A DNA stretch of 64,000 bases from Candidatus Omnitrophota bacterium (lineage in GTDB: Bacteria; Omnitrophota; Omnitrophia; Omnitrophales; Aquincolibacteriaceae): the NCBI GenBank assembly GCA_041674705.1, contig JBAYVF010000005.1, positions 36,645 to 100,644 on the forward strand, given 5' to 3'. The notes beneath the pieces are model-generated. The model worked only from the letters and a program-made list of their open reading frames with translations, had not been told where the DNA came from and ran no database searches. Shown here piece by piece: positions 9,268 to 57,154 of this stretch. Position 1 is the first letter of the stretch, and each line of letters opens with the position of its first letter. A program made the translations under genes and the position numbers.

Positions 9268-9366
9268 GACATAGTACTTTGTACTTGGTACATAGTACTT
9301 GGCATATAGCAAAAAACTTCCCCCATTTTGTTTTGCTCCAAGTACCATGTGCTATGTACTATGTGC
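9268..9366. repeat. Heptamer-array hairpin, ACATAGT/ACTTGGT word family, copy 1
   Basis: Left arm 9268-9310 reads acatagt actttgt acttggt acatagt acttggc atatagc. Right arm 9335-9366 is the imperfect complement. Loop ~24 nt. Starts 6 nt after the giant-ORF stop. Confidence 0.75.
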
Positions 9367-9437
9367 TTTCATTTCAGTCCCTTCATTGCTAAAATACTCT
9401 CCAAGTTTGTAACCCGTTGAATCAAGGGGGGATAGCA

Positions 9438-10652
9438 GTGTTTCCATCCGTCAAAGAGCAGCTAGAGGTTTTTAAAGAAAATCTCGTCGAGCTTATCTCC
9501 GAGCGTGAGCTGACGATGAAGCTTGAAGCTTCCCTCAAGAATAAATGTCCTCTTCGTATCAAATACGGCGCCGATCCTTCGGCCCCCGATCTTCATTTGG
9601 GGCATACGGTCCCTCTTCGTAAACTTCGACAGCTTCAGGATTTAGGTCATCTCGTCGTTTTCATTATCGGCGATTTCACCGCGCGTATTGGGGATCCTTC
9701 CGGGAAATCGGAAACGCGGCCCATGCTTTCCGAAGAGCAGGTTCAGACGAACGCCAAAACCTATCAGGAGCAGGTGTTCCGCATCCTCGATAAAAAGAAG
9801 ACGGAGGTGCGCTACAACTCCGAATGGCTGGGTACCATGAGTTCCGCGGATTTTCTCAAACTCACGGCGCAGTACACGGTCGCCAGGATCCTTGAACGCG
9901 ATGATTTTTCAAAGCGCTATAAATCAGGGGAGCCCATTGCGGTCGTGGAGCTTCTTTATCCCCTCATGCAAGGCCATGATTCCGTGGAGATCGAATCCGA
10001 TATCGAGATCGGCGGAACGGATCAAAAATTCAATCTTCTGGTCGGACGGGAACTTCAAAAGACCGATGGCCAGGAGCCTCAGGTTGTGATGACGCTTCCT
10101 CTGATCGAAGGGTTGGATGGCGTTCAGAAGATGTCAAAAAGCCTCGGAAATCATATTGCGCTGAAAGACAGTCCCCGGGAAATGTTCGGCAAGGTGATGT
10201 CAATCCCGGATGCTCTGATGGAACGGTATTACCGGTACGCGGCCGCGCTTTCTCCCAAAGAAGTCGAAAAGATCCTCGCAAGTCTAAAAAACGGAGAACT
10301 CCATCCTCGCGACGCCAAGGCGCAACTCGCGGAGCGGATCGTGTCTCTTTTTCATTCGGAAGCGGAAGGAAAAAGCGCGCGCGAAGAATTCGATGAGATC
10401 TTCAAGAATAAAGGCATGCCGGATGAGATCCCCACCGTCAAGATCGGTCAAAAGACGATCGATATCGTGAGCCTCCTGGTCGAGGCGGGGCTTGTGACGA
10501 GCAAATCCGAAGCTCGTCGTCTTATGGAACAGGGCGGGGTGAAGATCGGACACGAAAAGATCACGGACCCGAAGGCGGTCATGACGATCGGAGCGCCGTT
10601 TGTTCTCCAGTGCGGTAAGCGGAAATTCGTAAAGATAGTAAGTAGTATGTAG
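9438..10652 (+). CDS. tyrS: Tyrosyl-tRNA synthetase
   Basis: HIGH-type motif (DLHLGH), KMSKS (KMSKSLGN) and a C-terminal S4-like domain. The ORF track starts at TTG 9417; GTG 9438 is preferred because AAGGGGGG sits at 9424-9431. Confidence 0.93.
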
Positions 10653-10722
10653 TAGGTAGTATGTGGGGAAGGGAACGGCGGAACAGATTTTTGGCTTTTA
10701 CCTATCACCTACTACCTACCCC
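10637..10722. repeat. Heptamer-array inverted repeat, AGTAAGT/AGTATGT/AGTAGGT word family
   Basis: Left array 10637-10668 overlaps the last tyrS codons. Right array 10696-10722 (acctatc acctact acctacc) is its imperfect complement. Only a 9-bp core (gtagtaggt) pairs perfectly. Confidence 0.6.
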
Positions 10723-10747
10723 AATATGATTTTTCATAGAAAGATCC

Positions 10748-11731
10748 ATGGATAAAACACACTCCGGTGCTTTAATACAGTTCCAAAGTGTCTCCAAGAA
10801 CTACGGGTCTTTCCATGCGCTTCGCGATGTCTCCTTTGACGTTAAGGAAGGGGAGATCGTCGGATTCCTGGGGCCGAATGGCGCGGGCAAGACCACGGCG
10901 ATGCGCATTCTTTCCGGATTTTTTCCTCCCTCAAGCGGCCGTGTTTTTGTCTGTGGCACGGACATGTCAAAACATCCCCACAAGGCGAAGCGTGCCATTG
11001 GCTATCTTCCGGAAACGGTGAGTCTCTATCCGGATATGAAGGTGATCGAATATTTAAAGTTCGTGGCAAAGCTTAAAGGCGTGCCGGCCCATGAACTGGA
11101 CGGGCATGTCCGGAGCAAAATGTCGTTTTGCGGGCTTCTCGAGAACGGGCACCGTTTGATCGGGAGACTTTCCAAGGGGTACCGGCAGCGTGTCGGGCTT
11201 GCCCAGGCGCTTATGGGTGATCCTCAGGTCCTGGTCTTGGATGAACCGACGACCGGGCTTGATCCGACGCAGATCAAGGAGATCCGGGAGCTGATCCGCG
11301 CGCTTGGGCAGAACCGCGCCGTGATCCTTTCAACGCATATCCTGCCTGAGGTTTCGATGCTTTGCAGCCGCGTCATGATGATCAATCAGGGCGAGATCCT
11401 GGCAAGCGGGACTGTTCCGGAGCTTGCCTCCTGTCTGAAAGACCGCGAGGCGATCCACATCAAGATCAAGGACAAAAAAGACCAGCACCGCGCGCTCGGG
11501 ATCCTGGGTTCGATGCCGGGGGTCGAGTCCCTGGAGGTCGCGGAGGAAGTCAGGGGAGAGACTTTTATTACTTTTGAAACTTCGCCGGACGAGGACTTGC
11601 GGCCCCGGATCATGAAAAAATTTTTGGAGCAGGGGATTTCACTCACCGAGATCCAACGCTTGCAGTTGTCGCTCGAGGATATTTTTCTGGGGCTTTTGAA
11701 AAACGGGAAAGTGGGGAGACGTTTTCCATGA
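10748..11731 (+). CDS. ABC transporter ATP-binding protein (GldA-like, ABC-2 type)
   Basis: Walker A GPNGAGKTT, signature LSKGYRQR, Walker B LVLDEPTTGLD. Confidence 0.9.
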   Translation: MDKTHSGALIQFQSVSKNYGSFHALRDVSFDVKEGEIVGFLGPNGAGKTTAMRILSGFFPPSSGRVFVCGTDMSKHPHKAKRAIGYLPETVSLYPDMKVIEYLKFVAKLKGVPAHELDGHVRSKMSFCGLLENGHRLIGRLSKGYRQRVGLAQALMGDPQVLVLDEPTTGLDPTQIKEIRELIRALGQNRAVILSTHILPEVSMLCSRVMMINQGEILASGTVPELASCLKDREAIHIKIKDKKDQHRALGILGSMPGVESLEVAEEVRGETFITFETSPDEDLRPRIMKKFLEQGISLTEIQRLQLSLEDIFLGLLKNGKVGRRFP

Positions 11732-12504
11732 GAAAAGTCCTAACGATCGCGCGTAGGGAGTTCAGTAGCTGTTTTCACTCCTGGCTGGGGGTGCTCGTCG
11801 CGTCGCTTTTTTTCCTGGCCGCAGGGATCTTTTTTGTGATCCTGGTGCTGAACTATTCGAAGATCTCCATGAACCCGGAGCAGTACGGGCTCTCGAATTT
11901 TTCGGGGATCAATCAAACACATTATATCTTCGGGTCCTTTTTTTCAAACCTGAGCATTATGCTTCTTTTTCTGGTGCCGATCCTCACGATGCGTTCCTTC
12001 GCGGAAGAAAAACGGCAAGAAACGCTGGAGCTTCTCTTTACCTATCCTTTGTCCGATCTTGAGATCGTGGCCGGAAAACAGTTGGGGATCCTATTGTTTT
12101 TTGGGGCGCTTCTCTTGCCCCTGGCGGGATATTTGGCGGTGTTCCATGGAATTGGCGGAGAATTCGATTGGGGGCCGGTGGGGCTTGGATTTCTCGGATT
12201 CTGGCTTTTGGGGGCAGCCTACTCGGCGGCCGGGGTCTTTATCTCGAGCCTGACAAAAAATCCGATTGTGAGCGCGTTCGGAACTTTCAGCGTTTTGCTC
12301 GTGTTCTGGATCTTTGATTGGGTGGATGAGGTCGTGACGGGGCCCTGGGGGCATATCTTTTCCGAGCTTTCGCCGCTTGCTCATTATAAAAATTTCGCGC
12401 TGGGGATCCTGGATGTCCAGGATGTGGTTTATTTTGGTTTCTTTTTCTTTTATTTTCTTTTTCTCACGCTCCGTTCGACCGAAACAAGAAATTGGAAAAG
12501 CTGA
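11728..12504 (+). CDS. ABC-2 type transporter permease (GldF-like)
   Basis: Multi-TM protein. ATGA start/stop overlap with the upstream ATPase gene. Confidence 0.8.
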   Translation: MRKVLTIARREFSSCFHSWLGVLVASLFFLAAGIFFVILVLNYSKISMNPEQYGLSNFSGINQTHYIFGSFFSNLSIMLLFLVPILTMRSFAEEKRQETLELLFTYPLSDLEIVAGKQLGILLFFGALLLPLAGYLAVFHGIGGEFDWGPVGLGFLGFWLLGAAYSAAGVFISSLTKNPIVSAFGTFSVLLVFWIFDWVDEVVTGPWGHIFSELSPLAHYKNFALGILDVQDVVYFGFFFFYFLFLTLRSTETRNWKS

Positions 12505-12511
12505 ACAATAA

Positions 12512-12933
12512 GTTCGGAGTCTGGAGCTGGGAGTTCGGAGATTGAAACATGGAAGATAAATTTTCATTCGAGAATCTGTTGGTCTATAGGAAAGCGTTGG
12601 ATTATGTGGATTGCGTCTATGAATGGACCCAGGTATTCCCAAAAGAAGAAAAGTTTGGACTGACAAGCCAATTTCAGAGGGCAGCGCAGTCCATAGCGTT
12701 AAATATCGGGGAGGGAAGCGGCGGCACCAAGGCCGAATTCCAGCATTTCGTAAAGATAGCCAGACGATCTGTAAGGGAATGTATTGTTTGTACAACGCTT
12801 GCAAGAAGAAGGAATTATCTATCTGAAAAGGATGAGGCGAAATCGCGAGAAAGAGCTTCGGAATTATCAAAAATGCTGAGTGGGCTGTTTAAGGCTATTT
12901 GATGCTCCGAACTCCAAACTCATGACTCAAAAC
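12512..12933 (+). repeat. GTTCGGA-word hairpin cassette enclosing the four-helix-bundle ORF
   Basis: The 29-nt arms 12512-12540 (gttcgga gtctgga gctggga gttcgga g) and 12905-12933 are complementary at 23/29 positions (hand count). They abut the ORF at 12549-12902. Confidence 0.8.
12549..12902 (+). CDS. Four-helix-bundle protein (23S rRNA intervening-sequence protein / Avd-like family)
   Basis: 117 aa. LVYRKALDY..LTSQFQRAAQSIALNIGEG..F..IARRSVRE pattern typical of the PF05635/TIGR02436 family. GGAG RBS lies in the flanking repeat arm. Confidence 0.8.
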   Translation: MEDKFSFENLLVYRKALDYVDCVYEWTQVFPKEEKFGLTSQFQRAAQSIALNIGEGSGGTKAEFQHFVKIARRSVRECIVCTTLARRRNYLSEKDEAKSRERASELSKMLSGLFKAI

Positions 12934-12938
12934 TAAAA

Positions 12939-14351
12939 ATGAGACAGTTTTTTTTAAAGTTCCAGATTTTGTTCGAGGCGGCGATCCTTTTGGCAACGCT
13001 GACGCTGGTTTATGTGGTGATCCAGCCCTTTCATGAGCGGTGGGACATGACCCGTGAAAAGATCTATTCGCTTCCTCGGGCGACCACCGGAGTTTTGCGC
13101 GATTTGAAAGATCATAGAGTCGATCTTCTTCTTTTCTTTCCACAGGATGATCCCACGCGAAAAGGGCTGGAAGTTTTTCTGAAAGAGTGTAGCCGGCATC
13201 ACCCGGATTTTCATTTCGATTTCTATGACCCGAACCGGAGGCCGCAACTTGCGCGTAAGTTCAATGTCTCGGTCGCCAAGACGGTGATCTTCCGCTCCGG
13301 TGATCGGGAAGAACGTCTGATAGGTCCGACCGAAGAAGGCTTTACGAATGCGTTCCTGCGGCTACTCCATCCCAAGGATCTGGATGTCTGCTTCGTGTCG
13401 GGTCATGGAGAGGTGGAGCTCGATGATGAAACGACCGGCGGGTACCTGCGTTTCAGAGACACACTTTTAGGATATAACGCCAAGGTCCACGGGATCGTGC
13501 TCGCGCGTGACCATGTGCCGGATGCCTGCCAGGTAGTGGTTGTGGGCGGTCCGCGTTGGGATTTGACGGCCGAAGAGTTTGCGGATCTGGACAAGGCCTT
13601 CCAAAAAGGGAAGGGTGTGCTGCTTTTGGTCGATCCGATGGACCCGGGTGCGGGAGGTGCATTCACGGAATTTGCGAAAAAATATGGTGTGGCGCTTGGG
13701 CAGAACGTGATCGTGGATAAGGTCAGCCGTATGGTGGGCGGAGATTTTTTGATGCCGCTCGTGAGTCAGTATCTCGTGACGAATTCCATCACGAAGACCA
13801 TGAAACAAGCGACTTTTTTTCCGTTGGTGCGTACGGTGCAACCGTCCGCGGATGTTATCCCGGGGCTTGAGGTGACGCCTCTGGCCATGACCAGCGAGGG
13901 GAGTTGGGGAGAAACGGATCTTTCAGCCCTTGAGAATGGGAATGCGGCGTTTGATATGAAAACAGATATCGCGGGGCCTTTGCCGGTGGCCGTGGCGATC
14001 GAGAAAACCAGCGATAAGCTGTCAGCGTTAAGCGGTAAGGAAAAAACCTCTAACGCTTATAACTTAGCGCTTTTCGCTGGAGGCCGGATGATCGTTGTGG
14101 GGGACGGGGATTTTTTGACGAATGGCTATCTGGATCTTTCCGGGAATAAGGAGCTGGGACTGAATATGATCCGCTGGCTCGCCCGCGATGATCGTTTTAT
14201 GGACGTGAAGCGTCCGGAGCTTCGTTTTAAGCCGCTCCTGCTTGACGTGCCGCATCGGACCCAGCTGATCATCCTTTTGCTCGGAGTCTATCCCTTGGCG
14301 CTCCTTGTGCTTGGTGGGACCTATCTTGTGATCCGTTCCAGGACGTCATGA
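12939..14351 (+). CDS. GldG-like ABC-transporter auxiliary protein
   Basis: N- and C-terminal TM anchors. Sequence and operon position resemble the GldG / ABC-type uncharacterized transport system family. Confidence 0.75.
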   Translation: MRQFFLKFQILFEAAILLATLTLVYVVIQPFHERWDMTREKIYSLPRATTGVLRDLKDHRVDLLLFFPQDDPTRKGLEVFLKECSRHHPDFHFDFYDPNRRPQLARKFNVSVAKTVIFRSGDREERLIGPTEEGFTNAFLRLLHPKDLDVCFVSGHGEVELDDETTGGYLRFRDTLLGYNAKVHGIVLARDHVPDACQVVVVGGPRWDLTAEEFADLDKAFQKGKGVLLLVDPMDPGAGGAFTEFAKKYGVALGQNVIVDKVSRMVGGDFLMPLVSQYLVTNSITKTMKQATFFPLVRTVQPSADVIPGLEVTPLAMTSEGSWGETDLSALENGNAAFDMKTDIAGPLPVAVAIEKTSDKLSALSGKEKTSNAYNLALFAGGRMIVVGDGDFLTNGYLDLSGNKELGLNMIRWLARDDRFMDVKRPELRFKPLLLDVPHRTQLIILLLGVYPLALLVLGGTYLVIRSRTS

Positions 14352-14428
14352 TTCTCCTCATTGAAAAAAATAAACGGGTAATCATGACAGCCCAAGTCAC
14401 CATCCAAGAAAAGAAAATAAAGACTTGG
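14347..14428 (+). repeat. Conserved ~80-nt intergenic element with short ORF start, copy 1
   Basis: Shares catgattctc and an identical 38-mer (14366-14403 = 52703-52740) with copy 2. Contains ATG 14384 opening MTAQVTIQE... Confidence 0.8.
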
Positions 14429-16987: not shown

Positions 16988-16996
16988 GTTTTGGAT

Positions 16997-17056
16997 GTCA
17001 TCCCCGAATGTTTTAGTCGGGGATCCAGCCTGGATTCCCGCTTCCGCGGGAATGAC
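16997..17056 (+). repeat. Structured 60-nt repeat (twin-hairpin element), copy 1
   Basis: gtcat-CCCCGA-loop-TCGGGG-atcca..tggat-TCCCGC-loop-GCGGGA-atgac, 10 nt after the proC stop. Confidence 0.8.
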
Positions 17057-17091
17057 AATGTTAACAATAACCCGTAGGTAGGGAGAATAAA

Positions 17092-17394: not shown

Positions 17395-17497
17395 CCCCGT
17401 TAGAAATTCAACCAATGATCTTTTGAGAACATGCCGTGGCAGGTAATACGAAATGGAAGTTAGTGACAGGCGATCCAAAATTGTATTTCTAACGGGG
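17395..17497. repeat. 13-bp perfect inverted repeat pair CCCCGTTAGAAAT / ATTTCTAACGGGG enclosing 77 nt
   Basis: Arms 17395-17407 and 17485-17497. Begins right after the yggT TGA. A third partial copy cccgttaga lies at 17513-17521. Confidence 0.8.
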
Positions 17498-17602
17498 CAA
17501 GTGACCACCTGTCCCGTTAGACATTTGATGAGGCGAAAGAATCAAGCAGGTGTTCGAAGTTTATATAAAGAAAAGTTCTTGCGAATATAAAGGAGAAAAT
17601 TA

Positions 17603-18457
17603 ATGTCTAACGGGATGAAACGTACCCAGAAACCTTCGAACGAACTTCTTGAGAAGATCGATGCCTGCGTCGCGGCGATCCGTAAAGAAACGGATTTTAT
17701 TCCCGAGATCGCGCTGGTCCTTGGCACGGGGCTCGGGAATCTCGCGGGGCGCGTGAAGGCGGAAAAGGTTCTGACGTATGACAAGCTGCCGCATTTTTCG
17801 AAGTCGACCGTGGAATCCCATAAAGGGCAGCTCGTGCTCGGGGAACTTTCCGGAAAAAAGATCGCGGTGATGGAAGGACGATTCCATTTTTATGAAGGGT
17901 ACTCGCTTGAGGAGGTGACGTTCGGGGTGCGCGTGCTCCGCGAGCTGGGGGCAAAGATCCTGATCGTTTCAAACGCGGCCGGCGGATTGAATTTGAGCTA
18001 CAAAAAAGGAGAGATCGTGATCATCACCGACCAGATAAATTTTATGGGGGTGAATCCGCTGATCGGCCCTAATCTTAATAAGCTGGGGCCCCGCTTTCCG
18101 GATATGTATGAGCCTTATTCCAAGCGTTTGAACGACCTGACACTTGCCGCGGCGAAAGAAGTCAAAGTCCCGGTGAATCAGGGGGTTTATGTCGGAGTGA
18201 CGGGGCCGTGCCTTGAAACCCGCGCGGAGTACCGGATGATGCGTAATTTCGGCGCAGATCTTGTGGGGATGTCCACGGTGCCGGAGGTGATCGTGGGGGT
18301 GCACATGGGGATGGAGATCCTGGGCTTGAGCATTGTGACAGACACTTGTGATCCGGACCATCTCGAGCCATGCAATATCCAGGAGATCATCAAGACGGCG
18401 AACGAAGCCGGGCCGAAGTTAGACAAACTTATTACAGCCGCGATTTCCAAGTTCTAA
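17603..18457 (+). CDS. punA: Purine nucleoside phosphorylase (PunA/PNP-I type)
   Basis: STVESHKGQLVLG..GRFHFYEGY..SNAAGG..GMSTVPE closely parallel PunA-family sequences. Confidence 0.88.
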   Translation: MSNGMKRTQKPSNELLEKIDACVAAIRKETDFIPEIALVLGTGLGNLAGRVKAEKVLTYDKLPHFSKSTVESHKGQLVLGELSGKKIAVMEGRFHFYEGYSLEEVTFGVRVLRELGAKILIVSNAAGGLNLSYKKGEIVIITDQINFMGVNPLIGPNLNKLGPRFPDMYEPYSKRLNDLTLAAAKEVKVPVNQGVYVGVTGPCLETRAEYRMMRNFGADLVGMSTVPEVIVGVHMGMEILGLSIVTDTCDPDHLEPCNIQEIIKTANEAGPKLDKLITAAISKF

Positions 18458-18524
18458 GTGCCATGTACTATGTACCAAGTACGGAGGCATAACGAGTACT
18501 TAGCATATAGTACATAGTACTTAG
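18458..18524. repeat. Heptamer-array hairpin, ACATAGT/ACTTGGT word family, copy 2 (opposite orientation)
   Basis: Arms 18458-18482 and 18496-18524, ~17/20 complementary by hand. The 18-mer gtacttggtacatagtac at 9281-9298 recurs as its reverse complement at 18465-18482. Confidence 0.8.
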
Positions 18525-30654: not shown

Positions 30655-31251
30655 TTGAAACCTTGGATTCTTGCCATAACAGGAGCGAGCGGAGTCGTTT
30701 ACGGGATGCGTCTGCTCGAGATGCTGGGAGAGCAGAGAATCCCTGTGGAGTTTGTGATCTCGGACACAGCAAAGATCGTGATGAAGGAAGAGCTGGGGAG
30801 TGAGGCAAGGTTTCCGGAGGCTTCTCATTTGTTCCGTATTCACGATTTCCACGATTTTACCGCGTCGATCGCGAGCGGATCTTACCCGACGGAAGGTATG
30901 GTGATCGTGCCGTGCAGTATGGGAACGCTCGGGGCGATCGCCTCAGGCCTCAGCCAGAATCTTATCCACCGCGCTGCGGATTGTACGATCAAGGAAGGAC
31001 GCAAACTTATCCTCGTGCCGCGCGAAACGCCGCTTTCCGCGATCCATCTTGAAAATATGCTGAAGCTTTCTCGCCTCGGAGTGAAGATCGTTCCGCCGAT
31101 GCCGGCTTTTTATTCCGAACAAAAGAGTATTCAAGACCTCGTGGATTTCGTGGTGGGGAAGGTGCTCGATCAGATGGGTGTTTCGCACATGCTCTACCCG
31201 CGGTGGGTGGGGAAAATAGACTACAGACCGCAGACTACAGACAATAGCTAG
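30655..31251 (+). CDS. ubiX: UbiX-family flavin prenyltransferase
   Basis: ITGASG..VPCSMGTLGAIA..PAFY pattern of the UbiX/Pad1 family. TTG start. Confidence 0.88.
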   Translation: MKPWILAITGASGVVYGMRLLEMLGEQRIPVEFVISDTAKIVMKEELGSEARFPEASHLFRIHDFHDFTASIASGSYPTEGMVIVPCSMGTLGAIASGLSQNLIHRAADCTIKEGRKLILVPRETPLSAIHLENMLKLSRLGVKIVPPMPAFYSEQKSIQDLVDFVVGKVLDQMGVSHMLYPRWVGKIDYRPQTTDNS

Positions 31252-32126: not shown

Positions 32127-33238
32127 TGGATATTCACGACACAATCCTCGAAAAACGTCTGAGCGGTGGACGGCTCACGTTTGAAGACGGCGTTCAGCTC
32201 TACACCTGCGATCTTTTGAGGTTGGGCGAGGCTGCCCGAAAACTGACGCCGCGGCTCCTGACCAATGCCGTGACGTTTATTGTGGATCGCAATATCAGTT
32301 ACACAAATGTTTGCACGATTGGCTGTGACTTCTGTGCGTTCCATTGCGCCCCAGGAGCCCCAGAAGCGTATGTGCTTTCCAGAGAAAAGATCCTAGCCAA
32401 GGTTCTTGAGCTCGTGGGCTTAGGAGGAACACAGGTCTTGATTCAGGGGGGCATTCATCCGGACCTAAAACTTGATTACTACCTGGACATAGTCCGAGCC
32501 ATTCATGAGAAATTTCCGCAGGTTGCGATCCACTCTTTTTCCGCGATTGAGATGGATGTGTTGTCACAAAAGTCGGGGGTCGCTTTGTCCAAATTGTTCA
32601 GGAGGTTCAAAGAAGCCGGACTGAACTCGCTTCCGGGGGGCGGGGCGGAGATCCTTGTGGAGCGCGTGCGCAAACTGATCAGCCCGAAAAAGATCTCATC
32701 CGATCGGTGGCTTGAAGTGATGCGAACGGCCCACGAGGCGGGGCTTAAGACCACCGCGACCATGGTTTTCGGACACGTTGAAACGATCGAGGAAAGGATC
32801 TTTCATTTGATCAAACTGAGGGATCTTCAGGATCAGACCCAAGGCTTTCGGTCCTTCATCCCCTGGAGTTTTGTTCCATTCGCAAATAAGGGGACAGTCC
32901 CTTTAAATGCGTTAGAGGGACTGTCCCCATCAGGCGGGGACGACTATCTCAAGACGGTTGCGATATCGCGGCTTATGCTCGATAATTTCGAGCATATTCA
33001 AAGCGGCTGGCTTACCGAAGGGCTCAAGCTCGGCCAGATCGCTCTCGCATTCGGTTGCGACGACTTGGGCGGCACTTTGATCGAGGACAAGATCCTGGAG
33101 CCCACAGGGATCAAGGTGAATACTCGCAGGGATGATCTTATTCGTCTTATCAGAGACGCCGGGTTCATTCCCGTTCAGCGCGACACAAATTACAAAATTC
33201 TAAAAATTTTTAAGGAGGTGACCGATGCCGGCGCCTGA
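32126..33238 (+). CDS. Radical SAM enzyme of the CofH/MqnC/MqnE family (futalosine pathway)
   Basis: CTIGCDFCAF CxxxCxxC cluster motif. Family-typical GGIHP and FIPWSF segments. MqnC versus MqnE cannot be resolved by eye. Confidence 0.85.
   Translation: MDIHDTILEKRLSGGRLTFEDGVQLYTCDLLRLGEAARKLTPRLLTNAVTFIVDRNISYTNVCTIGCDFCAFHCAPGAPEAYVLSREKILAKVLELVGLGGTQVLIQGGIHPDLKLDYYLDIVRAIHEKFPQVAIHSFSAIEMDVLSQKSGVALSKLFRRFKEAGLNSLPGGGAEILVERVRKLISPKKISSDRWLEVMRTAHEAGLKTTATMVFGHVETIEERIFHLIKLRDLQDQTQGFRSFIPWSFVPFANKGTVPLNALEGLSPSGGDDYLKTVAISRLMLDNFEHIQSGWLTEGLKLGQIALAFGCDDLGGTLIEDKILEPTGIKVNTRRDDLIRLIRDAGFIPVQRDTNYKILKIFKEVTDAGA
32890..32928. repeat. Perfect 13-bp palindromic hairpin inside the mqnC/E-like CDS
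   Basis: ggggacagtccct (32890-32902) / agggactgtcccc (32916-32928) with a 13-nt loop. In frame, it encodes GTVPLNALEGLSP. Confidence 0.85.
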
Positions 33239-34398: not shown

Positions 34399-34460
34399 GT
34401 CATCCCCGAACGTTTTAATCGGGGATCCATGGATTCCCGCTAAAAACATGCGGGAATGAC
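34399..34460 (+). repeat. Structured 62-nt repeat (twin-hairpin element), copy 2
   Basis: Same stems as 16997-17056. All differences fall in loops. Lies 13 nt after the ridA-like stop. Confidence 0.8.
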
Positions 34461-35380: not shown

Positions 35381-36403
35381 ATGACCACATTCAATAAGAT
35401 CACTCGCGAGAAAGTCCTCGAATGCCTCAAACAGGTCCAGGAGCCTGTCCTGAACGAGGACGTTGTTTCCCTCGGGCTTGTCCGCGAGATCGAGATCGAC
35501 AAGAACCATGCTTTCGTTCATCTGGAATCTTCAGTCGAGGATCCTTCCTTGCAGGAAAAATTGCGCGGGGCGATCGCTCAGGCGGTGCTCAAGGCGGGCG
35601 CGAGCGGCTGTGATGTTCACTTTTCCGGGAAACCGAAATGCGGGATGAACGCTTCGGCGATTCAACCCATTTCCGGCGTGAAGCATGTGATCGCCGTGGC
35701 AAGCGGGAAGGGCGGCGTCGGGAAATCGACTGTGGCTGTGAATCTGGCGCTTGCTTTAAAACAACTTGGCGCCAAAGTGGGATTGATGGATGCGGATATT
35801 TACGGCCCGAATATTCCGATCATGTTGGGCATCTCGCCTGAAAAACGTCCCGAGGGAAATGCGGAAGCCAAAATAATTCCTCTTGCCGCCCATGGCGTGA
35901 AAGCGATCTCGATCGGATTTTTTGCAAATCCCGAGCAACCGGTGATCTGGCGCGGGCCGCTTCTCCATAAAACTATGGAGCAGTTCCTGCACCGGGTGGA
36001 TTGGGGGGAGTTGGATTATTTGGTGGTGGACCTGCCGCCCGGAACGGGGGACGTGCAACTTTCCTTATCCCAATGGGTAAGCCTGTCGGGCGCGGTGGTA
36101 GTGACGACGCCCCAGGAAGTGGCTTTGAGCGATGTCCGGAAAGCGGTGAATATGTTCCGTCAGCTCGAGGTGCGGATCCTGGGAGTAGTCGAAAATATGA
36201 CAGGACCGATCTTTGGCAAGGGGGGCGGCGAAAAAATGGCCGATGTGTTTCAAATCCCTTTTCTTGGAAGTATTCCGCTCGAGGCTCAAGTGCGGGAATG
36301 CGGGGATTTGGGGCTTCCGGTCGTGATCGGACATCCCAAAAGCCCCATCAGCGAACGATTCGTGAAGATCGCGGAAGCGGTGCGGAAAACATTAAAAGCT
36401 TAA
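35381..36403 (+). CDS. Mrp/NBP35/ApbC-family Fe-S cluster carrier ATPase
   Basis: N-terminal DUF59-like region and a deviant Walker A SGKGGVGKST. Confidence 0.9.
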   Translation: MTTFNKITREKVLECLKQVQEPVLNEDVVSLGLVREIEIDKNHAFVHLESSVEDPSLQEKLRGAIAQAVLKAGASGCDVHFSGKPKCGMNASAIQPISGVKHVIAVASGKGGVGKSTVAVNLALALKQLGAKVGLMDADIYGPNIPIMLGISPEKRPEGNAEAKIIPLAAHGVKAISIGFFANPEQPVIWRGPLLHKTMEQFLHRVDWGELDYLVVDLPPGTGDVQLSLSQWVSLSGAVVVTTPQEVALSDVRKAVNMFRQLEVRILGVVENMTGPIFGKGGGEKMADVFQIPFLGSIPLEAQVRECGDLGLPVVIGHPKSPISERFVKIAEAVRKTLKA

Positions 36404-36405
36404 AT

Positions 36406-36508
36406 GGCTGAAAAGGCTAAAAGGGCTAAAAACGCTTTAAAACTTCCGGGTTGATTTTTTAAAGCATCTTAAGCCTGTTTAGCTTTTTTTGCTTGTTTAG
36501 CCTTGGCC
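36406..36508. repeat. GGCTAAAA-word array hairpin (mrp-folE spacer)
   Basis: Left array is ggctgaaaa ggctaaaa gggctaaaa acgctttaaaa. The right arm 36455-36508 carries the complementary tttagc/ttaagcc words. Loop cttccgggttga. Confidence 0.6.
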
Positions 36509-36529
36509 TACAATTAAGGAGATGAATTC

Positions 36530-37122: not shown

Positions 37123-37187
37123 GGCGGAAGGTGTACGGCGAAGCTAGGAAGTTTGCGCCGTACGCCTTACTCCGTACGTCGTTTTTT
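37123..37187. terminator. GTACGGCG-word hairpin followed by T-run between convergent folE and lpxD
   Basis: Arms 37123-37140 and 37155-37179 (~13/15 pairing in the core), then gttttttg. Sits between the stop codons of convergent genes. Confidence 0.7.
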
Positions 37188-43753: not shown

Positions 43754-43809
43754 GAGTACGGCGCAAGGCGTACGGCGTTTTATTTCGCCGTACTCCGTAC
43801 GCCGTACAC
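43754..43809. repeat. GTACGGCG-word hairpin, copy 2 (guaB3-guaA spacer)
   Basis: Arms 43754-43777 / 43786-43809 are complementary at 20/24 positions. 8-nt loop ttttattt. Confidence 0.8.
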
Positions 43810-43822
43810 AGGACTCAAAAGC

Positions 43823-45364: not shown

Positions 45365-45371
45365 CACCAGT

Positions 45372-45457
45372 GCGGCGTACGGAGTATCGCGTACGGCGTA
45401 AAAGCACAAAATGATTTTAAAGTTCAACGCGAGACGCCGTACTCCGTACGCCGTACG
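45372..45457. repeat. GTACGGCG-word hairpin, copy 3 (guaA-dnaE spacer)
   Basis: Arms 45372-45398 / 45435-45457 are ~19/23 complementary. 36-nt loop. The 22-mer cgccgtactccgtacgccgtac is identical at 43786-43807 and 45435-45456. Confidence 0.8.
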
Positions 45458-45460
45458 AAA

Positions 45461-50578: not shown

Positions 50579-50580
50579 TC

Positions 50581-52040: not shown

Positions 52041-52048
52041 TGAACTAG

Positions 52049-52648
52049 ATGGAATGGTTCTGGAAGATGTACGATCATCTCCAAAAAAGCGTTGCGGGCT
52101 CGGCCCTTCAAAACTTTGCACCGACCGACTGGATTTTTTTATGCCTGATCTTTTGGGGCCTGGTGCAGGGAAGCCGTAAGGGTTTTAGCGACATGTTCGG
52201 GAAGTTGTTGGGGATATTCCTTGTGAGCATGCTGACCCTGAGTTTTTACTTAAAGGCGGGCGCCTTTCTCAACGCAAATCTTCCCGTTTTTCCCTTGAAA
52301 GTCGCTGAATCGATTTCTTTTTTTCTGCTGACCCTCTTTCTCTGGCTTTCCGTCTCATGGAGTCTCAATATCGTCGGCAAATTTCTCAGGGTGGAGGCGC
52401 AAGGGATCCTGAAGACCTTGGGCGGAATGATCTTCGGTGTTTTGCGCATGATGCTTTTACTCAGCTTTCTCGCGCAGATGCTTTTGTTCCTTCCGATCGA
52501 ACCCCTGCAGCAGATCTTCAAACAGGGACGTACCTTCACAGGTTATGCGATCGCGCAATTCGTGCCTCATCTTCACACGCTGGTTGTAAGCCCCTTCCGT
52601 AAGCCGGCCCTTAAAAAAGCCGTAGCCTCATACAAGGTCGGCGGGTAG
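52049..52648 (+). CDS. cvpA: CvpA-family membrane protein
   Basis: ..DWIFLCLIFWGLVQGSRKGFSDMFGKLLG.. matches the CvpA N-terminal pattern. 4 TM. Confidence 0.7.
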   Translation: MEWFWKMYDHLQKSVAGSALQNFAPTDWIFLCLIFWGLVQGSRKGFSDMFGKLLGIFLVSMLTLSFYLKAGAFLNANLPVFPLKVAESISFFLLTLFLWLSVSWSLNIVGKFLRVEAQGILKTLGGMIFGVLRMMLLLSFLAQMLLFLPIEPLQQIFKQGRTFTGYAIAQFVPHLHTLVVSPFRKPALKKAVASYKVGG

Positions 52649-52687
52649 CATCGTGTCGATTTTATTTTTGCGGGTGCACAGTACAGC

Positions 52688-52765
52688 CATGATTCTCAAA
52701 TTAAAAATAAACGGGTAATCATGACAGCCCAAGTCACCATTCAGGAAATAAAAATAGAGACTCGG
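52688..52765 (+). repeat. Conserved ~80-nt intergenic element with short ORF start, copy 2
   Basis: See copy 1. ATG 52721 opens a 28-codon ORF ending at TAG 52805-52807, 14 nt before the dnaG ATG. Confidence 0.8.
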
Positions 52766-52821
52766 GCAGTACTGCGAACCATAAAATCAATATTAACGCA
52801 GTACTAGGAAACAGACGCGTT

Positions 52822-54624
52822 ATGGAACAAAAAAACTCCGGGACGCGTTACGAAGAACATGTCGTTGAGCAAGTCAGCGCCGCCAACGATATCGTCGAGA
52901 TCATCTCCCAATATGTGCCTCTGAAGCGCGCCGGCCGTCATCTCAAGGCCTGCTGTCCCTTTCATCAGGAAAAATCCCCTTCGTTCATGGTTCAACCCGA
53001 AAAACAGATGTTCCATTGTTTTGGATGCGGGGCCGGGGGCGATGTGTTCAGTTTTCTTATGCGTCATGAAAATATGACATTTCCAGAGGCGTTAAAGTCG
53101 CTGGCGGAGCGCGCGCATATCACGCTTCCAGAGCGGCGTTCCCATCAGGACGACGGCGGACAGAAAGAAAAACTCTACGAGGTTTGCCAGGTCGCCGCCG
53201 ACATTTATCATGAGCTTCTTTTCAAAGAGACCGGGGCTGAGGCTCGCGCGTATCTGGCCAAGCGGCAGATCACGGAAGAAATTATCCGGGAGTTCAAGCT
53301 CGGCTGGGCGCCGATGGAATGGCGTACTCTTTTTGATCGCATGGTCGCTAAAAAATATCCGGAAGCGCTCCTCAAACAGGCGGCTTTGATCCAGCAGTCC
53401 CCGAAAGGGAATTATTACGACACCTTTCGCGGCCGTCTCATATTCCCGATTTTGAATCTCCAGAACAAGGTGATCGCGTTCGGCGGCCGGCTGATCGCTG
53501 ATCAGGAAGGTCCGAAATATCTCAATTCGCCGGAGACGCCGGTCTTTTTCAAGAGGCGCGAACTTTTTGGTTTGAATCTCGCCAAAAAGCATATCGATCG
53601 CGAATGGCCGACGCTGATCCTGGTGGAAGGCTACATGGATTTTCTCGCTCTTTATCAACACGGCTTCAAAAATGCTGTCGCAACGCTTGGTACCGCGCTC
53701 GGAGAAGATCATGTGCGTCTTATGCGGCGTTTTGTGGAGGAAGTGATCGTGGTCTATGACGGCGACAAAGCAGGAGAAGCCGCGGCCCTCCGCGGACTCG
53801 AGATCCTTCTGGAAGGCGGGATGCAGGTGAAGCTCGTGAGCTTGCCGAAGGGGGAGGACCCGGATGATTTTCTGAATAAGCGCGGGAACGATGCTTTTGC
53901 GGCGCTCTTGAAGAACGCCAAGGATTTTTTTGACTATAAGTTGCAAGCGCTTCTTGCGCGCTATCCGCGTCAAGACGCGCTGGGTGTTTCCAAGATCTGT
54001 CGCGAGATGTTCGAAACCTTTCTTAAGGTGAAAAATACGGTCATGCTTTCGGAATATTTCAAGAGACTCGCCCGCGCGTTACAAGTGGATGAAAACTCTT
54101 TGCGTACGGAGTTCTCTCACCTGAATAAAAAAGATACCGTCTCCCGAGAGAGGTCTCAAGCGGCTCCAGCTATGCCCGCACCGATCAAGCCTGCCCCCGA
54201 AGAATTGTTGCTTTTGGTGCTGATGGCGGAGGTGCCGCCTTTTTGTGATCGGGCCTGCGAAGAACTCAAGGATCTGGATCTCAAAACGCCGGCCTCGCGT
54301 GAGCTTTTTGAATATCTCCGGCAGATGAATGAGCAGGGGAAAAAATGCACGCTTTCGGGGCTTTTGATCCGGATCCAGGATGCTCTCTATCGCGAACAGC
54401 TTGTGGCGGTCATGGCCTCCTTGGATGAGACGGCGGAGCGGGAAAAGATCCTTGAGGACTGCATTGCCAAGATCAAACAAGGTCGTGCCACCGGGAGACT
54501 CGAGGAGTTGCGTCGTCTGATCCTCGCGGCCGAGAACGGACGAGATGAAACCAAAGTTCGAGCGGCTACCCAGGAATACCAGGAGCTTTTGAAGCGGTCC
54601 CGGGAAGCTAAAAAGGGCGAATAA
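52822..54624 (+). CDS. dnaG: DNA primase
   Basis: Zinc finger CPFHQEKSPSF..CFGCG, TOPRIM EGYMD..DGDKAG. Confidence 0.95.
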   Translation: MEQKNSGTRYEEHVVEQVSAANDIVEIISQYVPLKRAGRHLKACCPFHQEKSPSFMVQPEKQMFHCFGCGAGGDVFSFLMRHENMTFPEALKSLAERAHITLPERRSHQDDGGQKEKLYEVCQVAADIYHELLFKETGAEARAYLAKRQITEEIIREFKLGWAPMEWRTLFDRMVAKKYPEALLKQAALIQQSPKGNYYDTFRGRLIFPILNLQNKVIAFGGRLIADQEGPKYLNSPETPVFFKRRELFGLNLAKKHIDREWPTLILVEGYMDFLALYQHGFKNAVATLGTALGEDHVRLMRRFVEEVIVVYDGDKAGEAAALRGLEILLEGGMQVKLVSLPKGEDPDDFLNKRGNDAFAALLKNAKDFFDYKLQALLARYPRQDALGVSKICREMFETFLKVKNTVMLSEYFKRLARALQVDENSLRTEFSHLNKKDTVSRERSQAAPAMPAPIKPAPEELLLLVLMAEVPPFCDRACEELKDLDLKTPASRELFEYLRQMNEQGKKCTLSGLLIRIQDALYREQLVAVMASLDETAEREKILEDCIAKIKQGRATGRLEELRRLILAAENGRDETKVRAATQEYQELLKRSREAKKGE

Positions 54625-54629
54625 ATCGC

Positions 54630-54658
54630 TTGGTTTCAAGAGGCGAGATAACTATAAT
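54630..54658 (+). promoter_or_regulatory. Candidate promoter upstream of rpoD (TTGGTT-N17-TATAAT)
   Basis: TTGGTT 54630-54635, TATAAT 54653-54658. Confidence 0.45.
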
Positions 54659-54830
54659 ACCCAGCTCTATCCTTGTCTAAGATTTGATTTTAAAATGGTT
54701 GACAAGGATTGCCCTAATTTCCGTCCAAGTCTTTTTTCTTTAGATGGCGACTTGGACGGCCCCAATCACAGCGTTGCTGTGATTGATCGGGATTGGGACC
54801 GCTTCGCAAAAATTAAAAGGTTTTAGGACT

Positions 54831-56528
54831 ATGAAAAAAGCACACAAGAAGCCCACGCCCGTATCATCCAAAAAGCCCTCTTCGGCTCACGCCAAGGGGA
54901 AGTCCCTGCCTGTGCCGCCCGCCAAGGCAAAATCGGGTAAAAAGGGGGGCGTCTCGATGAAACTCCAGGGAGAGATGATTCATAAGCTCCTGACCCTCGG
55001 CAAGAAGCAGGGTTTTGTCACGATTGAGCAGATGAAAAAGCAGCTACCCGCGGACATGAACAATCCCGAAAAAGTCGAAGAGATCATTGTGGCTTTGAAT
55101 GAAAAAGGGATCGAAGTGACAAGCGGCGCCCCGGGAGATCCGACCAAGTCCGGTTCCGAAGTGATCCAGGACGTCGAAGTCAAAAAAGGGAAAGACTCCG
55201 AGCTTGAGGAAGATGCGGCCGTTGAAGAATATGAACGCGGGCGCATCGATGATCCGGTCCGCACTTATCTCCGCCAGATGGGACAGATTTCGCTTCTGAC
55301 CCGTGAACAAGAGATCGAGATCTCCAAGAAGATCGAAGCTTGTGAGCATGAGCTGAAGAAAGTGGTCTATCAGACCAAGGCGGCGCGGTTTGAAGTCCTT
55401 GAGCTCGCGAAAAAAATGCTCGAAGGCCAGGTCCAGATCGAGGCGATCATTGAAAGCGAAGAGCAGGCCCAGATCCAGACGCTCAAGAAAAAACTCAAGT
55501 TGTTGATCCGCAAGTTCCGCGCCTCCCGGAAAAAATCAAATGTCGTTGAACTTCTTTTGCAGTTTAATCTCAGTATCGCGATCGTCGAGCAGATCGTTGT
55601 CAGCTTAAGAGCTAAGCTGAAAGAGCTGAAACGGAACCGCGATGATATCAAGAAACTTCGTCGGAGCGGCGTGCGCGGCAAGATCGGCCAGATCGAGGAG
55701 CGGAACCGTCAGATCCTTCACGAGCTCGGCGAGCCGGAAGAAAAACTTCATGAGCATTTTAAAGCGATTATTCGCAAGGAATGGGAACTCACCAAGGCAA
55801 AGAAGGCGCTCGTGGCCGCCAACCTTCGCTTGGTAGTGAGTATTGCCAAAAAATATACGAACCGCGGGCTTTCTTTTCTGGACCTGATCCAGGAAGGGAA
55901 CATCGGCCTGATGAAAGCGGTGGATAAATTCGAATACAAGCGCGGCTATAAGTTTTCAACTTACGCGACCTGGTGGATCCGCCAGGCGATCACGCGCTCG
56001 ATCGCAGATCAGGCCCGTACGATCCGTATCCCGGTCCATATGATCGAAACAATCAACAAGTTTTTCCGAGCGTCGCGTCATCTGGTTCAGGAGACCGGGC
56101 GTGAACCGACCCCGGAAGAAGTTGCGCAGGTCATGAAGATGCCCGTTGAAAAGGTGAAGGGGATCTTGAAGATCGCCCAGGAGCCGATCAGCCTTCAGAC
56201 ACCGATCGGGGATGAGGGAGACACGAGTTTTGGGGATTTTATCGAAGATAAGTCTGCAGTCTCTCCGGCCAATGCGACGGCTTACAGTATGCTTAAGGAA
56301 CAAATGGATGACGTGCTTCTGACGCTTACCGAGCGTGAAGAAAAAGTCCTGCGTTTGCGATTCGGGATCGGCGACGGTTATCCCCGGACCCTGGAAGAGG
56401 TCGGGCATATTTTCAGCGTAACCCGTGAGCGGGTTCGTCAGATCGAGGCCAAGGCGCTTCGTAAGCTGCGTCACCCTACGCGGTCGAGAAAACTTAAGAA
56501 TTTTCTGGATATTAAGCTAAGCGAGTAA
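54831..56528 (+). CDS. rpoD: RNA polymerase sigma factor RpoD (sigma-70)
   Basis: [11 protein letters not shown] (1.2), [12 protein letters not shown] (2.x) and region 4 ..[17 protein letters not shown]. Lys-rich N-terminal tail. ATG 54831 preferred over 54783. Confidence 0.95.
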
Positions 56529-56609
56529 TAGAATCTTTTCGAGTTTGTACGGTCCGCGGGGACCCTTACCAAGCGCGGCGGCGGCGGTTAAATTATTTTT
56601 GAGGCCAAA

Positions 56610-57014
56610 ATGTCAGAGAATAAAAAATGCCTGCTTGTGATCGATGATGAGGATGATGTCGGCCAAATCATCAAGGAGAAGTTCGAGGCTCTTGGTTATA
56701 AGGTTTTGACCGCGCTTGACGGAGCCGAAGGTTTTCAGAAGACTGAAGAAGGTAAGCCCGACGTAGTGCTTCTGGATATCCGCATCCCGAAAGGCGAAGA
56801 CGGATTGACCTATCTTCGCAAACTTCGCTCGTACCGTCACGATGATCTTCAGGAACAGACTCGTATCCGGAAAACTCCCGTCATCATGCTGACCGGCGCC
56901 GGGGCGACGATGCAGTCGCTTTTTGAGCTTGAGGGGATCAGTGGTTTTATTGAAAAACCTTTTGATCTCGCTAATCTTCAGGGCAAAGTCGAGAACATCC
57001 TCCGGACACGTTAG
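56610..57014 (+). CDS. Response regulator, receiver domain only
   Basis: LVIDDEDD..LLDIRIP..MLTG..EKP receiver pattern. Confidence 0.85.
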   Translation: MSENKKCLLVIDDEDDVGQIIKEKFEALGYKVLTALDGAEGFQKTEEGKPDVVLLDIRIPKGEDGLTYLRKLRSYRHDDLQEQTRIRKTPVIMLTGAGATMQSLFELEGISGFIEKPFDLANLQGKVENILRTR

Positions 57015-57084
57015 TTTTCTTTCCCGCCTTATTGTTGATTGCAATTCCTCTTTATCTTCGATATCCTACTTTCGCTTTGCTCTA

Positions 57085-57154
57085 GTTCGGAGTATGGAGT
57101 TTGGAGTTCGGAGTAACATCCTTAGATTTTTTCTCCGAACTCAGGACTCATAAC
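57085..57154. repeat. GTTCGGA-word hairpin without ORF (19-nt loop)
   Basis: Left arm 57085-57113 is 26/29 identical to 12512-12540. Right arm 57133-57154 begins with the same ctccgaactc as 12905-12914. Confidence 0.8.

Follow-up and report, generated by a model that had tools for sequence, protein, structure and literature searches.

The closest described relative of the elements reported here is the intervening sequence (IVS) in the 23S rRNA of Coxiella burnetii (Warrier et al. 2016, PMC4990558). This IVS is closed by a 28-bp stem of terminal inverted repeats, and just upstream of its open reading frame (ORF), which encodes the protein S23p, it carries three tandem GACAGAT heptamers and a degenerate GACAGAA. 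The copy number of the heptamer varies by strain, one strain has a 176-bp deletion in the ORF, RNase III cuts inside the stem at the first repeat, and ORF-less IVS hairpins exist in other bacteria (PMC4990558). In this study, we analyzed a 64,000-nucleotide (nt) stretch of DNA from a Candidatus Omnitrophota bacterium (assembly GCA_041674705.1, contig JBAYVF010000005.1, positions 36,645 to 100,644 of the forward strand; hereafter the window), in which intergenic spacers carry hairpins built of tandem heptamers and one pair of such arms encloses a gene of the S23p family, PF05635.

Paired arrays of short units are also known outside rRNA. In Geobacter metallireducens, Aklujkar et al. (2009, PMC2700814) described paired sites on opposite strands, built of tandem hepta-, octa- or nona-nucleotide units. 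As their main text presents them, classes 1-3 are multicopy and intergenic, with three to five units per site and a variable distance within the pair, in all of which they resemble the window elements. The class 3 word, MTYCTGA, and a gene-flanking word that we found in Nostoc are reverse complements of each other, and the nona-nucleotide sites parallel a 9-mer variant in the window (36395-36504). The Geobacter sites were read as binding sites of integration host factor (IHF) or HU, and the main text of that paper reports neither a structure nor a four-helix-bundle gene. TAACTGA repeats of Beggiatoaceae, Cyanobacteria and Bacteroidetes (MacGregor 2015, PMC4679880) likewise form intergenic arrays of 2-6 or more copies near start codons, are patchily spread across phyla and are interspersed with variant units; in contrast to our elements they are direct repeats of a single word, with one inverted case, and were proposed to be sites for a translational regulator, not hairpins. 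An initial annotation of the window knew of no described element class with the hairpin-of-heptamers layout; the Coxiella stem (PMC4990558) and, as far as the main text describes them, the Geobacter sites (PMC2700814) partly anticipate it.

Repetitive extragenic palindromic (REP) sequences, bacterial interspersed mosaic elements (BIMEs), REP doublets forming hairpins (REPINs) and miniature inverted-repeat transposable elements (MITEs) share other properties with the window elements: they are short, dispersed, intergenic imperfect palindromes in operon spacers, fall into several families per genome, show presence/absence polymorphism and have possible roles in mRNA stability. The arms of REPs, however, are unique sequences and not tandem 7-nt arrays, and REPINs are tied to RAYT transposases, whereas the gene associated with the heptamers here encodes a 117-amino-acid helical bundle. 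[quoted passage not shown] The cyanobacterial STRR heptamers are said to go back to work of Mazel in 1990; stem-loops of STRRs in nif intergenic regions were reportedly noted by Jackman and Mulligan in 1995, and Vioque reportedly found in 1997 that STRR heptamers lengthen helix P12 of cyanobacterial RNase P RNA. Like STRRs, the window elements are tandem heptanucleotide arrays in intergenic DNA, and they make intergenic regions "highly variable but structured" between close relatives; they differ in their host, Candidatus Omnitrophota, and in their words (TAGTACT, AGTATGT, AGTTCGG, GTACGGC). To our knowledge, a link to PF05635 is not part of the STRR description.

One complete cassette (12511-12934) lies in the window, together with eight or nine versions that lack the ORF. 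The features are as follows (percentages are complementarity of the arms, and z is the z score of the RNA fold):

9266-9367, plus strand: ORF-less heptamer hairpin, words TAGTACT/TTGTACT/TGGTACA, between a giant ORF (stop at 9262) and tyrS; z -4.68; 19/23 positions complementary
10633-10722, plus strand: ORF-less heptamer hairpin, AGTAAGT/AGTATGT/AGTAGGT against TACCTAC-type arms; z -1.63, the weakest
12511-12547, plus strand: 5' arm of the ORF-bearing element, AGTTCGG AGTCTGG AGCTGGG AGTTCGG AG; 37 nt, 76%; 23/29 positions complementary
12549-12902, plus strand: four-helix-bundle gene, 117 amino acids, TIGR02436/PF05635 (S23p; Avd-like), between the genes of a GldF-like ATP-binding cassette (ABC) permease and a GldG-like protein
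12898-12934, plus strand: 3' arm of the ORF-bearing element, CTCCGAA CTCCAAA CTCATGA CTCAAAA CT, complementary to 12511-12547
18454-18524, plus strand: ORF-less heptamer hairpin that shares its GTAC-core family with 9266-9367; 29 nt, 83%; z -5.31
31215-31247, plus strand: solo direct array that lacks an inverted partner, AGACTAC AGACCGC AGACTAC AGACAAT
36395-36504, plus strand: hairpin with a 9-10-nt word, GGCTAAAAG, between apbC and folE; 48 nt, 73%; period 9; z -2.21
37124-37187, plus strand: GTACGGC-family hairpin followed by TTTTTT (37182-37187), at the convergent folE/lpxD junction; z -4.39; terminator-like for folE
43754-43816, plus strand: ORF-less heptamer hairpin, GAGTACG/GCGCAAG/GCGTACG, between an IMP dehydrogenase-family gene and guaA; z -5.55
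45370-45457, plus strand: ORF-less heptamer hairpin, GGCGTAC/GGAGTAT/CGCGTAC, filling the guaA-dnaE spacer; z -6.95; 20/24 positions complementary
57085-57154, plus strand: ORF-less hairpin, AGTTCGG/AGTATGG/AGTTTGG, between a response-regulator gene and tRNA-Met; z -3.88

The initial annotation had listed nine intergenic heptamer sites of several word families and one architecture, and all nine are present where it placed them. One arm of each is an array of 3-5 tandem copies of a ~7-nt word and the other is made of the complementary words; the loops of the eight ORF-less sites measure 8-45 nt. Three hand counts of complementary positions were exact: 19/23 for 9266-9288 against 9338-9360, 23/29 for 12512-12540 against 12905-12933, and 20/24 for 45376-45399 against 45434-45457. 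The GTACGGC family recurs at 37124, 43754 and 45370; 9266 and 18454 have the GTAC-core family in common, and 12511 and 57085 the AGTTCGG family. A period of about 7 is common to most sites, but the word at 36395-36504, which the annotation had itself given as 8-9 nt, has period 9. As for placement, said to be within a few nt of a stop codon and between co-oriented housekeeping genes, the hairpins do fill their spacers from about the stop codon onward; however, the tyrS stop codon (10650-10652) lies inside the array at 10633, the hairpin at 37123 separates the convergent folE and lpxD, and that at 57085 has a response-regulator gene and a tRNA gene as neighbours.

Period-7 arrays are strongly enriched in the window. 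A lag-7 self-similarity scan (28 nt at a time, at least 70% matches) yielded 14 regions in the 64 kb versus 0.3 in first-order Markov shuffles. Twelve of these regions are the two arms of the annotated sites and are mutually complementary; the remaining two are the solo AGACnnn array and a coding match at 53476-53503. Periods 4-6, 8 and 10-11 were at or near background in the same scan. Period 12 was above it (7 regions versus 1.2 in shuffles), at other coordinates throughout, and so was period 9 (5 versus 0.3), for which both arms of 36394-36503 lit up.

The heptamer sites also rank among the longest inverted repeats of the window, with arms of 22-48 nt and complementarity of 71-86%. The best 24-nt inverted match beat all 200 shuffles at six of the eight sites tested and was reached by one shuffle in 200 at the other two; such arrays, which the annotation had suggested looking for in shuffled controls, did not appear there. 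Predicted RNA folds gave z = -3.9 to -6.95 at six sites and were weaker at 10633-10724 (z -1.6) and at the 9-mer site 36395-36520 (z -2.2). A search of Rfam at the gathering threshold and at E<=1 returned no family, and hence no clean match, for any hairpin site; its output was otherwise RNase P RNA, tRNA and chance sub-threshold matches, one spurious mir-3116 among them, and the scan found no rRNA gene within the window. The hairpins are not an assembly artefact, since orthologous copies recur in independent assemblies (JGI, ENA, NCBI) and isolate genomes show the architecture too.

The element at 12511-12934 departs from the others. It had been annotated as a hairpin, and its arms are indeed complementary, but it is no simple one: the 350-nt "loop" is a gene that the annotation missed. 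The ORF at 12549-12902 matches TIGR02436 ("four helix bundle protein", E 4e-28) and is also a member of Pfam PF05635 ("23S rRNA intervening sequence protein", S23p); the closest solved structure of the 117-amino-acid protein is PDB 2gsc (XCC0516, pentameric; E 3.8e-24). This only PF05635 gene of the window lies 45 nt after the GldF-like permease gene and 36 nt before the GldG-like gene, co-oriented with both. Its ATG is preceded by four AGTTCGG-type units, and the 12511-12547 arm contains GGAG 9 nt upstream of the ATG. The PF05635 family is homologous to Avd, the nucleic-acid-binding accessory protein of diversity-generating retroelements (PMC10053308), and PF05635 ORFs also occur in rRNA insertions of candidate phyla radiation bacteria (PMC11270868). 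A role of the protein in a defence system received no support, as PADLOC gave no match. The window is contained in the 151-kb ENA contig ERZ27247358 k141_2076480. The nearest reference genome, a Candidatus Omnitrophota metagenome-assembled genome (L011; loci of relatives are given by L numbers), encodes a protein with 89% identity, and orthologues in four related assemblies (L003, L007, L010, L011) occupy the same site. All four have AGTTCGG-like words upstream and TCCGAAC-like words downstream, with different words and copy numbers.

The bracketing of this gene by inverted heptamer arrays extends far beyond Omnitrophota. We examined 80 GTDB loci (1.54 Mb in total) with relatives of the 117-amino-acid protein at 48-89% identity, which came from Omnitrophota, Actinomycetota, Planctomycetota, Nitrospirota, Deltaproteobacteria, Bacteroidota (many of them Flavobacteriaceae), Holophagales and Phycisphaerae; the scan covered about 90 genes of one subfamily and six cyanobacterial genes. 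At each locus, the 80 nt upstream of the gene were compared with the reverse complement of the 80 nt downstream. A sense heptamer array before the start codon and a complementary array after the stop codon recurred across loci in at least eight phyla. The word changes with the locus (AGTTCGG, AGTTCGT, CGTTCGG, TAGTCTG, TAGTTTA, GGTTAGT, GGGTAGA, GGAAAGT, GTAAATA and others).

These arrays are concentrated at the gene. The 80 loci contain 359 period-7 arrays versus 23 in shuffles, and 90 of the 359 lie within ~130 nt of the gene, that is, in 1.8% of the sequence. With a strict detector, 22 inverted array pairs, and no direct pair, enclose the gene. An array is present on at least one side of 83% of the PF05635 genes as against 21% of 928 other genes at the same loci, and on both sides of 54% as against 2.9%. 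The two arms of an element co-evolve: they pair at -34.0 kcal/mol with each other versus -23.8 kcal/mol with arms of other elements, the former being better in 74 of 93 cases (p = 3e-11). Gene-adjacent arrays also have an AGT core oriented relative to the gene (61 AGT versus 7 ACT among the 90). We considered AGT as a universal core and rejected it, as it occurs in only 8 of 29 ORF-less hairpins and not with other protein subfamilies. The idea that the arrays serve to place stop codons in all three frames was discarded too; TAG-containing words would fit it, but AGTTCGG-type words contain no stop.

The cassette is embedded in operons. Both neighbours share the orientation of the gene in 63 of 81 cases, whereas 52% are expected from adjacent gene pairs at the same loci (p = 3e-6), and the median spacers around it, 55 nt upstream and 42 nt downstream, consist mostly of the arrays themselves. 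Because of this co-orientation and these short array-filled spacers, gene and arms together fit a promoter-less cassette that would ride on host transcription. Paralogues of 17-46% identity have the same architecture, each with its own word, e.g., AGTGAAT (L039), GGATTTC/GGATTGC (L041) and AATAGGC (L052). It is also found on plasmids of Nostoc, Aulosira and Picosynechococcus. On pNPUN01 of Nostoc punctiforme PCC 73102 (1617-1982), eight AGTCAGG/AGTCAGA/ATTCAGG units precede the gene and TGACTCC TGACTTC TGAATTC follow it, and the Aulosira plasmid has the same arrangement, with AGTCAGG/AGTCAGA arrays inverted around the gene.

Genes of this family have been noted inside cas operons (Zhang & Ye 2013, PMC3936711). 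Two such cases are cassettes: on a plasmid of Picosynechococcus PCC 7003, the gene lies between cmr2 and cmr3 with GGAGATA words (L176, 1489-1845), and on pANA02 of Anabaena sp. 90 it lies between cas6 and cas4, with repeat arms (L172, 1489-1857). [quoted passage not shown]

Slots of the ORF-less hairpins were compared at 80 loci around guaA homologues and at four around rpoD homologues (L177-L180). The guaA-dnaE spacer, which the window hairpin fills up to 4 nt before the dnaE ATG, is a heptamer hairpin in every examined Omnitrophota relative with a GuaA identity of at least 80%, in at least seven word families; L178 has a near-identical copy of the window hairpin. The spacer upstream of guaA (the slot of 43754) holds a heptamer hairpin in most relatives, in five different word families, with a degenerate form in L096 and L100 and none in L099. 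The words flanking guaA are GTACGGC (window, L114, L178 and partly L096 and L100), AGACnnn (L091, L097), GCGCAAC (L092, L093, L097, L177), GGGACTC (L094-L096, L099, L180), GGGGAAC/GGGAAAC (L091, L100), TTCAAAA (L093) and a GCCACGT-like word (L179). Further copies in relatives and retention of arm complementarity while the words change, both of which the initial annotation had named as things to look for, are thus found together.

Sequence divergence alone does not explain this turnover, because the dnaG-rpoD spacer (54625-54782) remains alignable at the same divergence: it is conserved in plain sequence in L177-L180, including TTGGTT...TATAAT, TTGGTTTCAAGAGGCGAGATAACTATAAT, which is likely the rpoD promoter. 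The hairpin slots persist in architecture and not in sequence. The families intergrade (GGGGAAC, GGGCAAC, GCGCAAC, GTACAAC), and either in-place drift with homogenisation or copying between slots could produce the pattern.

Other slots of the window behave in a similar manner. At 10633, the first units of the 5' arm encode the last tyrS codons (..V S S M) together with the stop codon. L010 has the orthologous hairpin (8085-8110) and L003 lacks it (7990-8010); as L003 keeps the tyrS end ...AGCAGTATGTAG despite having no array, duplication of the 3' end of tyrS itself may have seeded the array. The hairpin at 18454-18524, between the purine nucleoside phosphorylase (PNP) gene and ileS, has its counterpart in a GCGCAAC-family hairpin in L011 and in a non-heptamer hairpin in L003. 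The 9-mer hairpin at 36395-36504 is absent from L091, where the slot is a 22-nt spacer. At 57085-57154 the words are those of the arms around the four-helix-bundle gene, and orthologous hairpins of the same family occur in L177 and L180. The solo array at 31215-31247 overlaps the 3' end of a flavoprotein gene (30655-31251), and its AGACnnn words build hairpins upstream of guaA in L091 and L097.

Hairpins with and without the gene can share a genome. In other phyla, inverted heptamer hairpins lacking an ORF (gap below 150 nt) were found in genomes that also have the gene, with four in 10 kb of the deltaproteobacterium RBG_13_43_22 (L027) and others in L049, L031, L015, L032 and L011. In L025 (7580-7793), an AGTTCGG hairpin holds no more of the gene than its first 39 codons (MNDQKFDFENLKVYQKALEYVDFVYK...) and then a stop, and reads as a direct intermediate between the gene-bearing and the ORF-less form; a disrupted copy of the gene is present in L140. 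Within another lineage (GuaA identity ~64%), the guaA-dnaE spacer comes in three states: with nothing in it (L125 and L130), with an ordinary hairpin (L122, L135, L136 and L141), and with the four-helix-bundle gene between GTGATAA/GTGGTAA arms (L137 and L140). Such presence/absence polymorphism had been proposed as a check and is also seen at 36395-36504. In both gene-bearing spacers (L137, 11524-12100; L140, 1834-2500), there is a second hairpin further in, AACCCCC...GGGGGTTTT, whose end falls exactly on the gene's ATG, and it would sequester the gene's purine-rich ribosome-binding stretch.

We interpret the window elements as IVS-type stem elements in operon spacers, forming one element class of which the PF05635 cassette is the complete form, and we assign this interpretation a probability of about 0.5. 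The likeness to IVSs with an S23p ORF (Coxiella, Leptospira; PMC4990558, citing Ralph & McClelland 1993) includes a PF05635 ORF inside an inverted-repeat stem (12511-12934), tandem heptamers of variable copy number in the arm just upstream of the ORF, stems of about 20 bp or more, an ORF that runs in the sense of the host transcript and lacks its own promoter, and decay of the ORF while the stem persists. The Coxiella IVS is the same cassette in an rRNA context, where its processing has been demonstrated. The window elements differ in lying in spacers of protein-coding genes (one beside a tRNA gene) and not in 23S rRNA helices 9, 25 or 45 or in 16S rRNA, in mostly lacking the ORF, and in having overt heptamer arrays as both arms; RNase III excision is demonstrated for IVSs, whereas the window elements are probable substrates of the enzyme. 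As they lie outside rRNA, they do not strictly count as IVSs, and by definition they are not STRRs. The most fitting description is that of a mostly ORF-less mRNA-spacer variant of the S23p/IVS-type heptamer-stem cassette.

According to the mechanism that we propose, the complete element would be a promoter-less cassette, with the PF05635 gene between upstream sense heptamers and their downstream complement, inserted in the spacer of co-transcribed genes and transcribed within the host operon. By analogy with rRNA IVSs, the arms would pair in RNA into an imperfect duplex of 20-35 bp, which RNase III could cut. Such a cut would excise or inactivate the enclosed ORF and separate the neighbouring cistrons or set their ends. 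A hairpin that spans the distance from a stop codon to the next start codon may also couple translation of the two cistrons. The elements may be of benefit to the host. The arms would evolve fast by slippage, through gain and loss of 7-nt units, with both arms staying matched, so that the word differs between sites and species while architecture and slot persist. ORF-less copies may derive from complete ones by loss of the ORF.

Tests at the RNA level are mixed. For the gene-flanking arms, the sense-strand duplex is somewhat more stable than the antisense one (59 versus 34, p = 0.008). Several other results weigh against our interpretation. Mismatches in the arms show no excess of sense G.U over A.C (52 versus 69) and are mostly transversions (242/363), the outer repeat units are often poorly complementary, and the sense strand gives ORF-less hairpins no greater stability (17 versus 12, p = 0.49). 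The ORF-less hairpin at 18454-18524 has its arms in the opposite order relative to transcription (and to 9266-9367). Orthologous hairpins of the same family (window with L114, L178, L177 and L180) gave no clean compensatory changes; because registers are ambiguous in stems built of repeats, there was no clean covariation and hence no covariance model. In no relative did the gene turn up in a slot that has an ORF-less hairpin in the window; for the 57085 slot, L177-L180 have either a hairpin or other sequence and never the gene. The case for derivation by ORF loss is built on L025, L140 and the Coxiella strain and not on window sites, the expectation of RNA pairing and RNase III cleavage is carried over from rRNA IVSs, and the model offers no reason for a unit of 7 nt. 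As the sequence tests gave weak results, we do not claim selection at the RNA level.

A first alternative is a neutral origin. Here, the arrays would be slippage microsatellites in weakly constrained spacers, template switching across quasi-palindromes would copy one arm from the other, the hairpins would be self-perpetuating and functionless, and the gene would merely survive best in such places. Orthologous hairpins do differ by gain or loss of whole units, single units are expanded to 8-11 copies on one arm only (L032, L051, L054), the tyrS array was apparently seeded from the 3' end of a gene that is kept array-less in L003, and the array at 31215-31247 is solo; the missing strand asymmetry of the ORF-less hairpins and the missing wobble excess agree with this as well. 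Yet slippage gives no account of a strong enrichment for period 7 only, repeated in at least eight phyla, of arrays concentrated about tenfold beside one gene family and inverted, never direct, or of an AGT core oriented to the gene. Gene-bearing arms ~400 nt apart are a poor substrate for quasi-palindrome correction and are matched nonetheless, and the slots are kept across species whose synonymous sites are largely saturated. We consider a purely neutral origin unlikely.

The oriented AGT core in this subfamily keeps in play a protein that recognizes its own repeats. In one version, each heptamer would be a DNA or RNA site for a multimer, either the PF05635 pentamer or IHF/HU, the symmetric arrays would make up a regulatory or nucleoprotein site, and the hairpin would be incidental. 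Within an array a core is conserved (AGT, GTAC, CAACG, GGGAC) while other positions vary, as is typical of iterated sites; other subfamilies carry other words, and the arm mismatches are mostly not pairing-preserving. The main text of Aklujkar et al. reads the Geobacter paired sites in this way (PMC2700814), and the homology to nucleic-acid-binding Avd (PMC10053308) and the pentamer of 2gsc (PMC4990558) point in the same direction. However, words differ widely among closely related Flavobacteriaceae proteins, the ORF-less hairpins of the window use four word families with a single PF05635 gene in 64 kb, and arms of the same element match beyond the shared core, which a pure site array would not need. 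Binding arrays with an incidental hairpin therefore seem distinctly unlikely to us.

MITE- or REPIN-like non-autonomous mobile elements, with repeat-built terminal inverted repeats served by a transposase encoded elsewhere, would account for the dispersal of families within one genome (GTACGGC, GTAC-core and AGTTCGG, each at two or more window sites) and for one family in different slots, such as GCGCAAC at PNP-ileS in L011 and at guaA flanks in L092, L093, L097 and L177. They would also account for presence/absence (36395-36504 versus L091; L137/L140 versus L125/L130) and for the observation that the more similar L091 (82% nt identity in the guaA-dnaE segment) carries families other than those of the window, whereas L114 (80%) shares them. 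Against mobility, no target-site duplication or conserved element ends could be defined, as the whole spacer differs between filled and alternative states; no near-identical dispersed copies or paralogues were found apart from the orthologous L178, the paralogous genes being 17-82% identical; and the families grade into one another, which fits in-place drift. No associated transposase was seen in a search that was not exhaustive, spanned 64 kb only and did not look for RAYT genes. We regard such mobile elements as very unlikely. Ordinary rho-independent terminators or attenuators are highly improbable, for although 37124-37175 is followed by TTTTTT at a convergent gene junction, so that 37124-37187 alone fits the definition of a G+C-rich stem-loop with a U-tract, the other eight sites have no T-run, just as the initial annotation had stated in setting most hairpins apart from intrinsic terminators, they are placed within apparent operons, directly beside the following start codon, and their stems are much longer and more mismatched than is typical.

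The window contains further repeats and structures that are not built of heptamers. A second, unrelated dispersed repeat family, GTCATCCCCGAA(N)TCGGGGATCC...GGATTCCCGC(N)GCGGGAATGAC, occurs at 16995-17057 and 34399-34460 as two short hairpins closed by GTCAT/ATGAC, in operon spacers. It is also found within L003 7990-8195 and L114 13080-13425; the tyrS-ABC slot, which has a heptamer hairpin in the window, is filled by this family in L003. Ahead of the PNP gene, the spacer (17395-17524) has a long-range stem, CCCCGTTAGAAAT...ATTTCTAACGGGG, followed by a second hairpin, and a near-perfect 17-nt palindrome, GGGGACAGTCCCTTTAA/TTAGAGGGACTGTCCCC, lies at 32890-32928. The class A RNase P RNA at 57942-58426 measures 485 nt as compared with 367 nt for the model, and the excess includes a long branched helix (58115-58223) with 41-nt arms of 71% complementarity; in heterocystous cyanobacteria, the corresponding RNase P RNA expansions are reported to be STRR arrays. 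Finally, a giant gene has its C-terminal 3,083 codons at positions 11-9262; on the source contig it is called as 10,569 amino acids, and its orthologues in related assemblies are also very large (7,830 amino acids in one).

A broader version of our interpretation, which we hold only tentatively and think doubtful, is that PF05635 proteins and inverted heptamer arrays form one phylum-spanning cis/trans system, in which the pentamer would recognize the core of its own repeats (AGT in this subfamily) and ORF-less arrays would be its regulon or non-autonomous copies. If true, this system would cover STRRs, the Geobacter paired sites, the TAACTGA repeats, ORF-bearing rRNA IVSs and the PF05635 genes in cas operons. 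In a literature search that was incomplete and did not cover the older STRR papers, we found no paper on heptamer arrays around four-helix-bundle genes in general.

Proteins of the PF05635/TIGR02436 family are small and widespread in bacteria, with several copies in some genomes. The present analysis ties this family, STRR-type heptamers and rRNA intervening sequences together: whether the gene lies in rRNA, in cas operons or in housekeeping operons, inverted heptamer arrays typically bracket it, and a vague "hypothetical protein" and a vague "repeat" thereby become one testable unit. Operon spacers of Omnitrophota and other phyla may carry a conserved processing or coupling structure, which screens for sequence conservation would miss because it is the architecture, and not the word, that is conserved.

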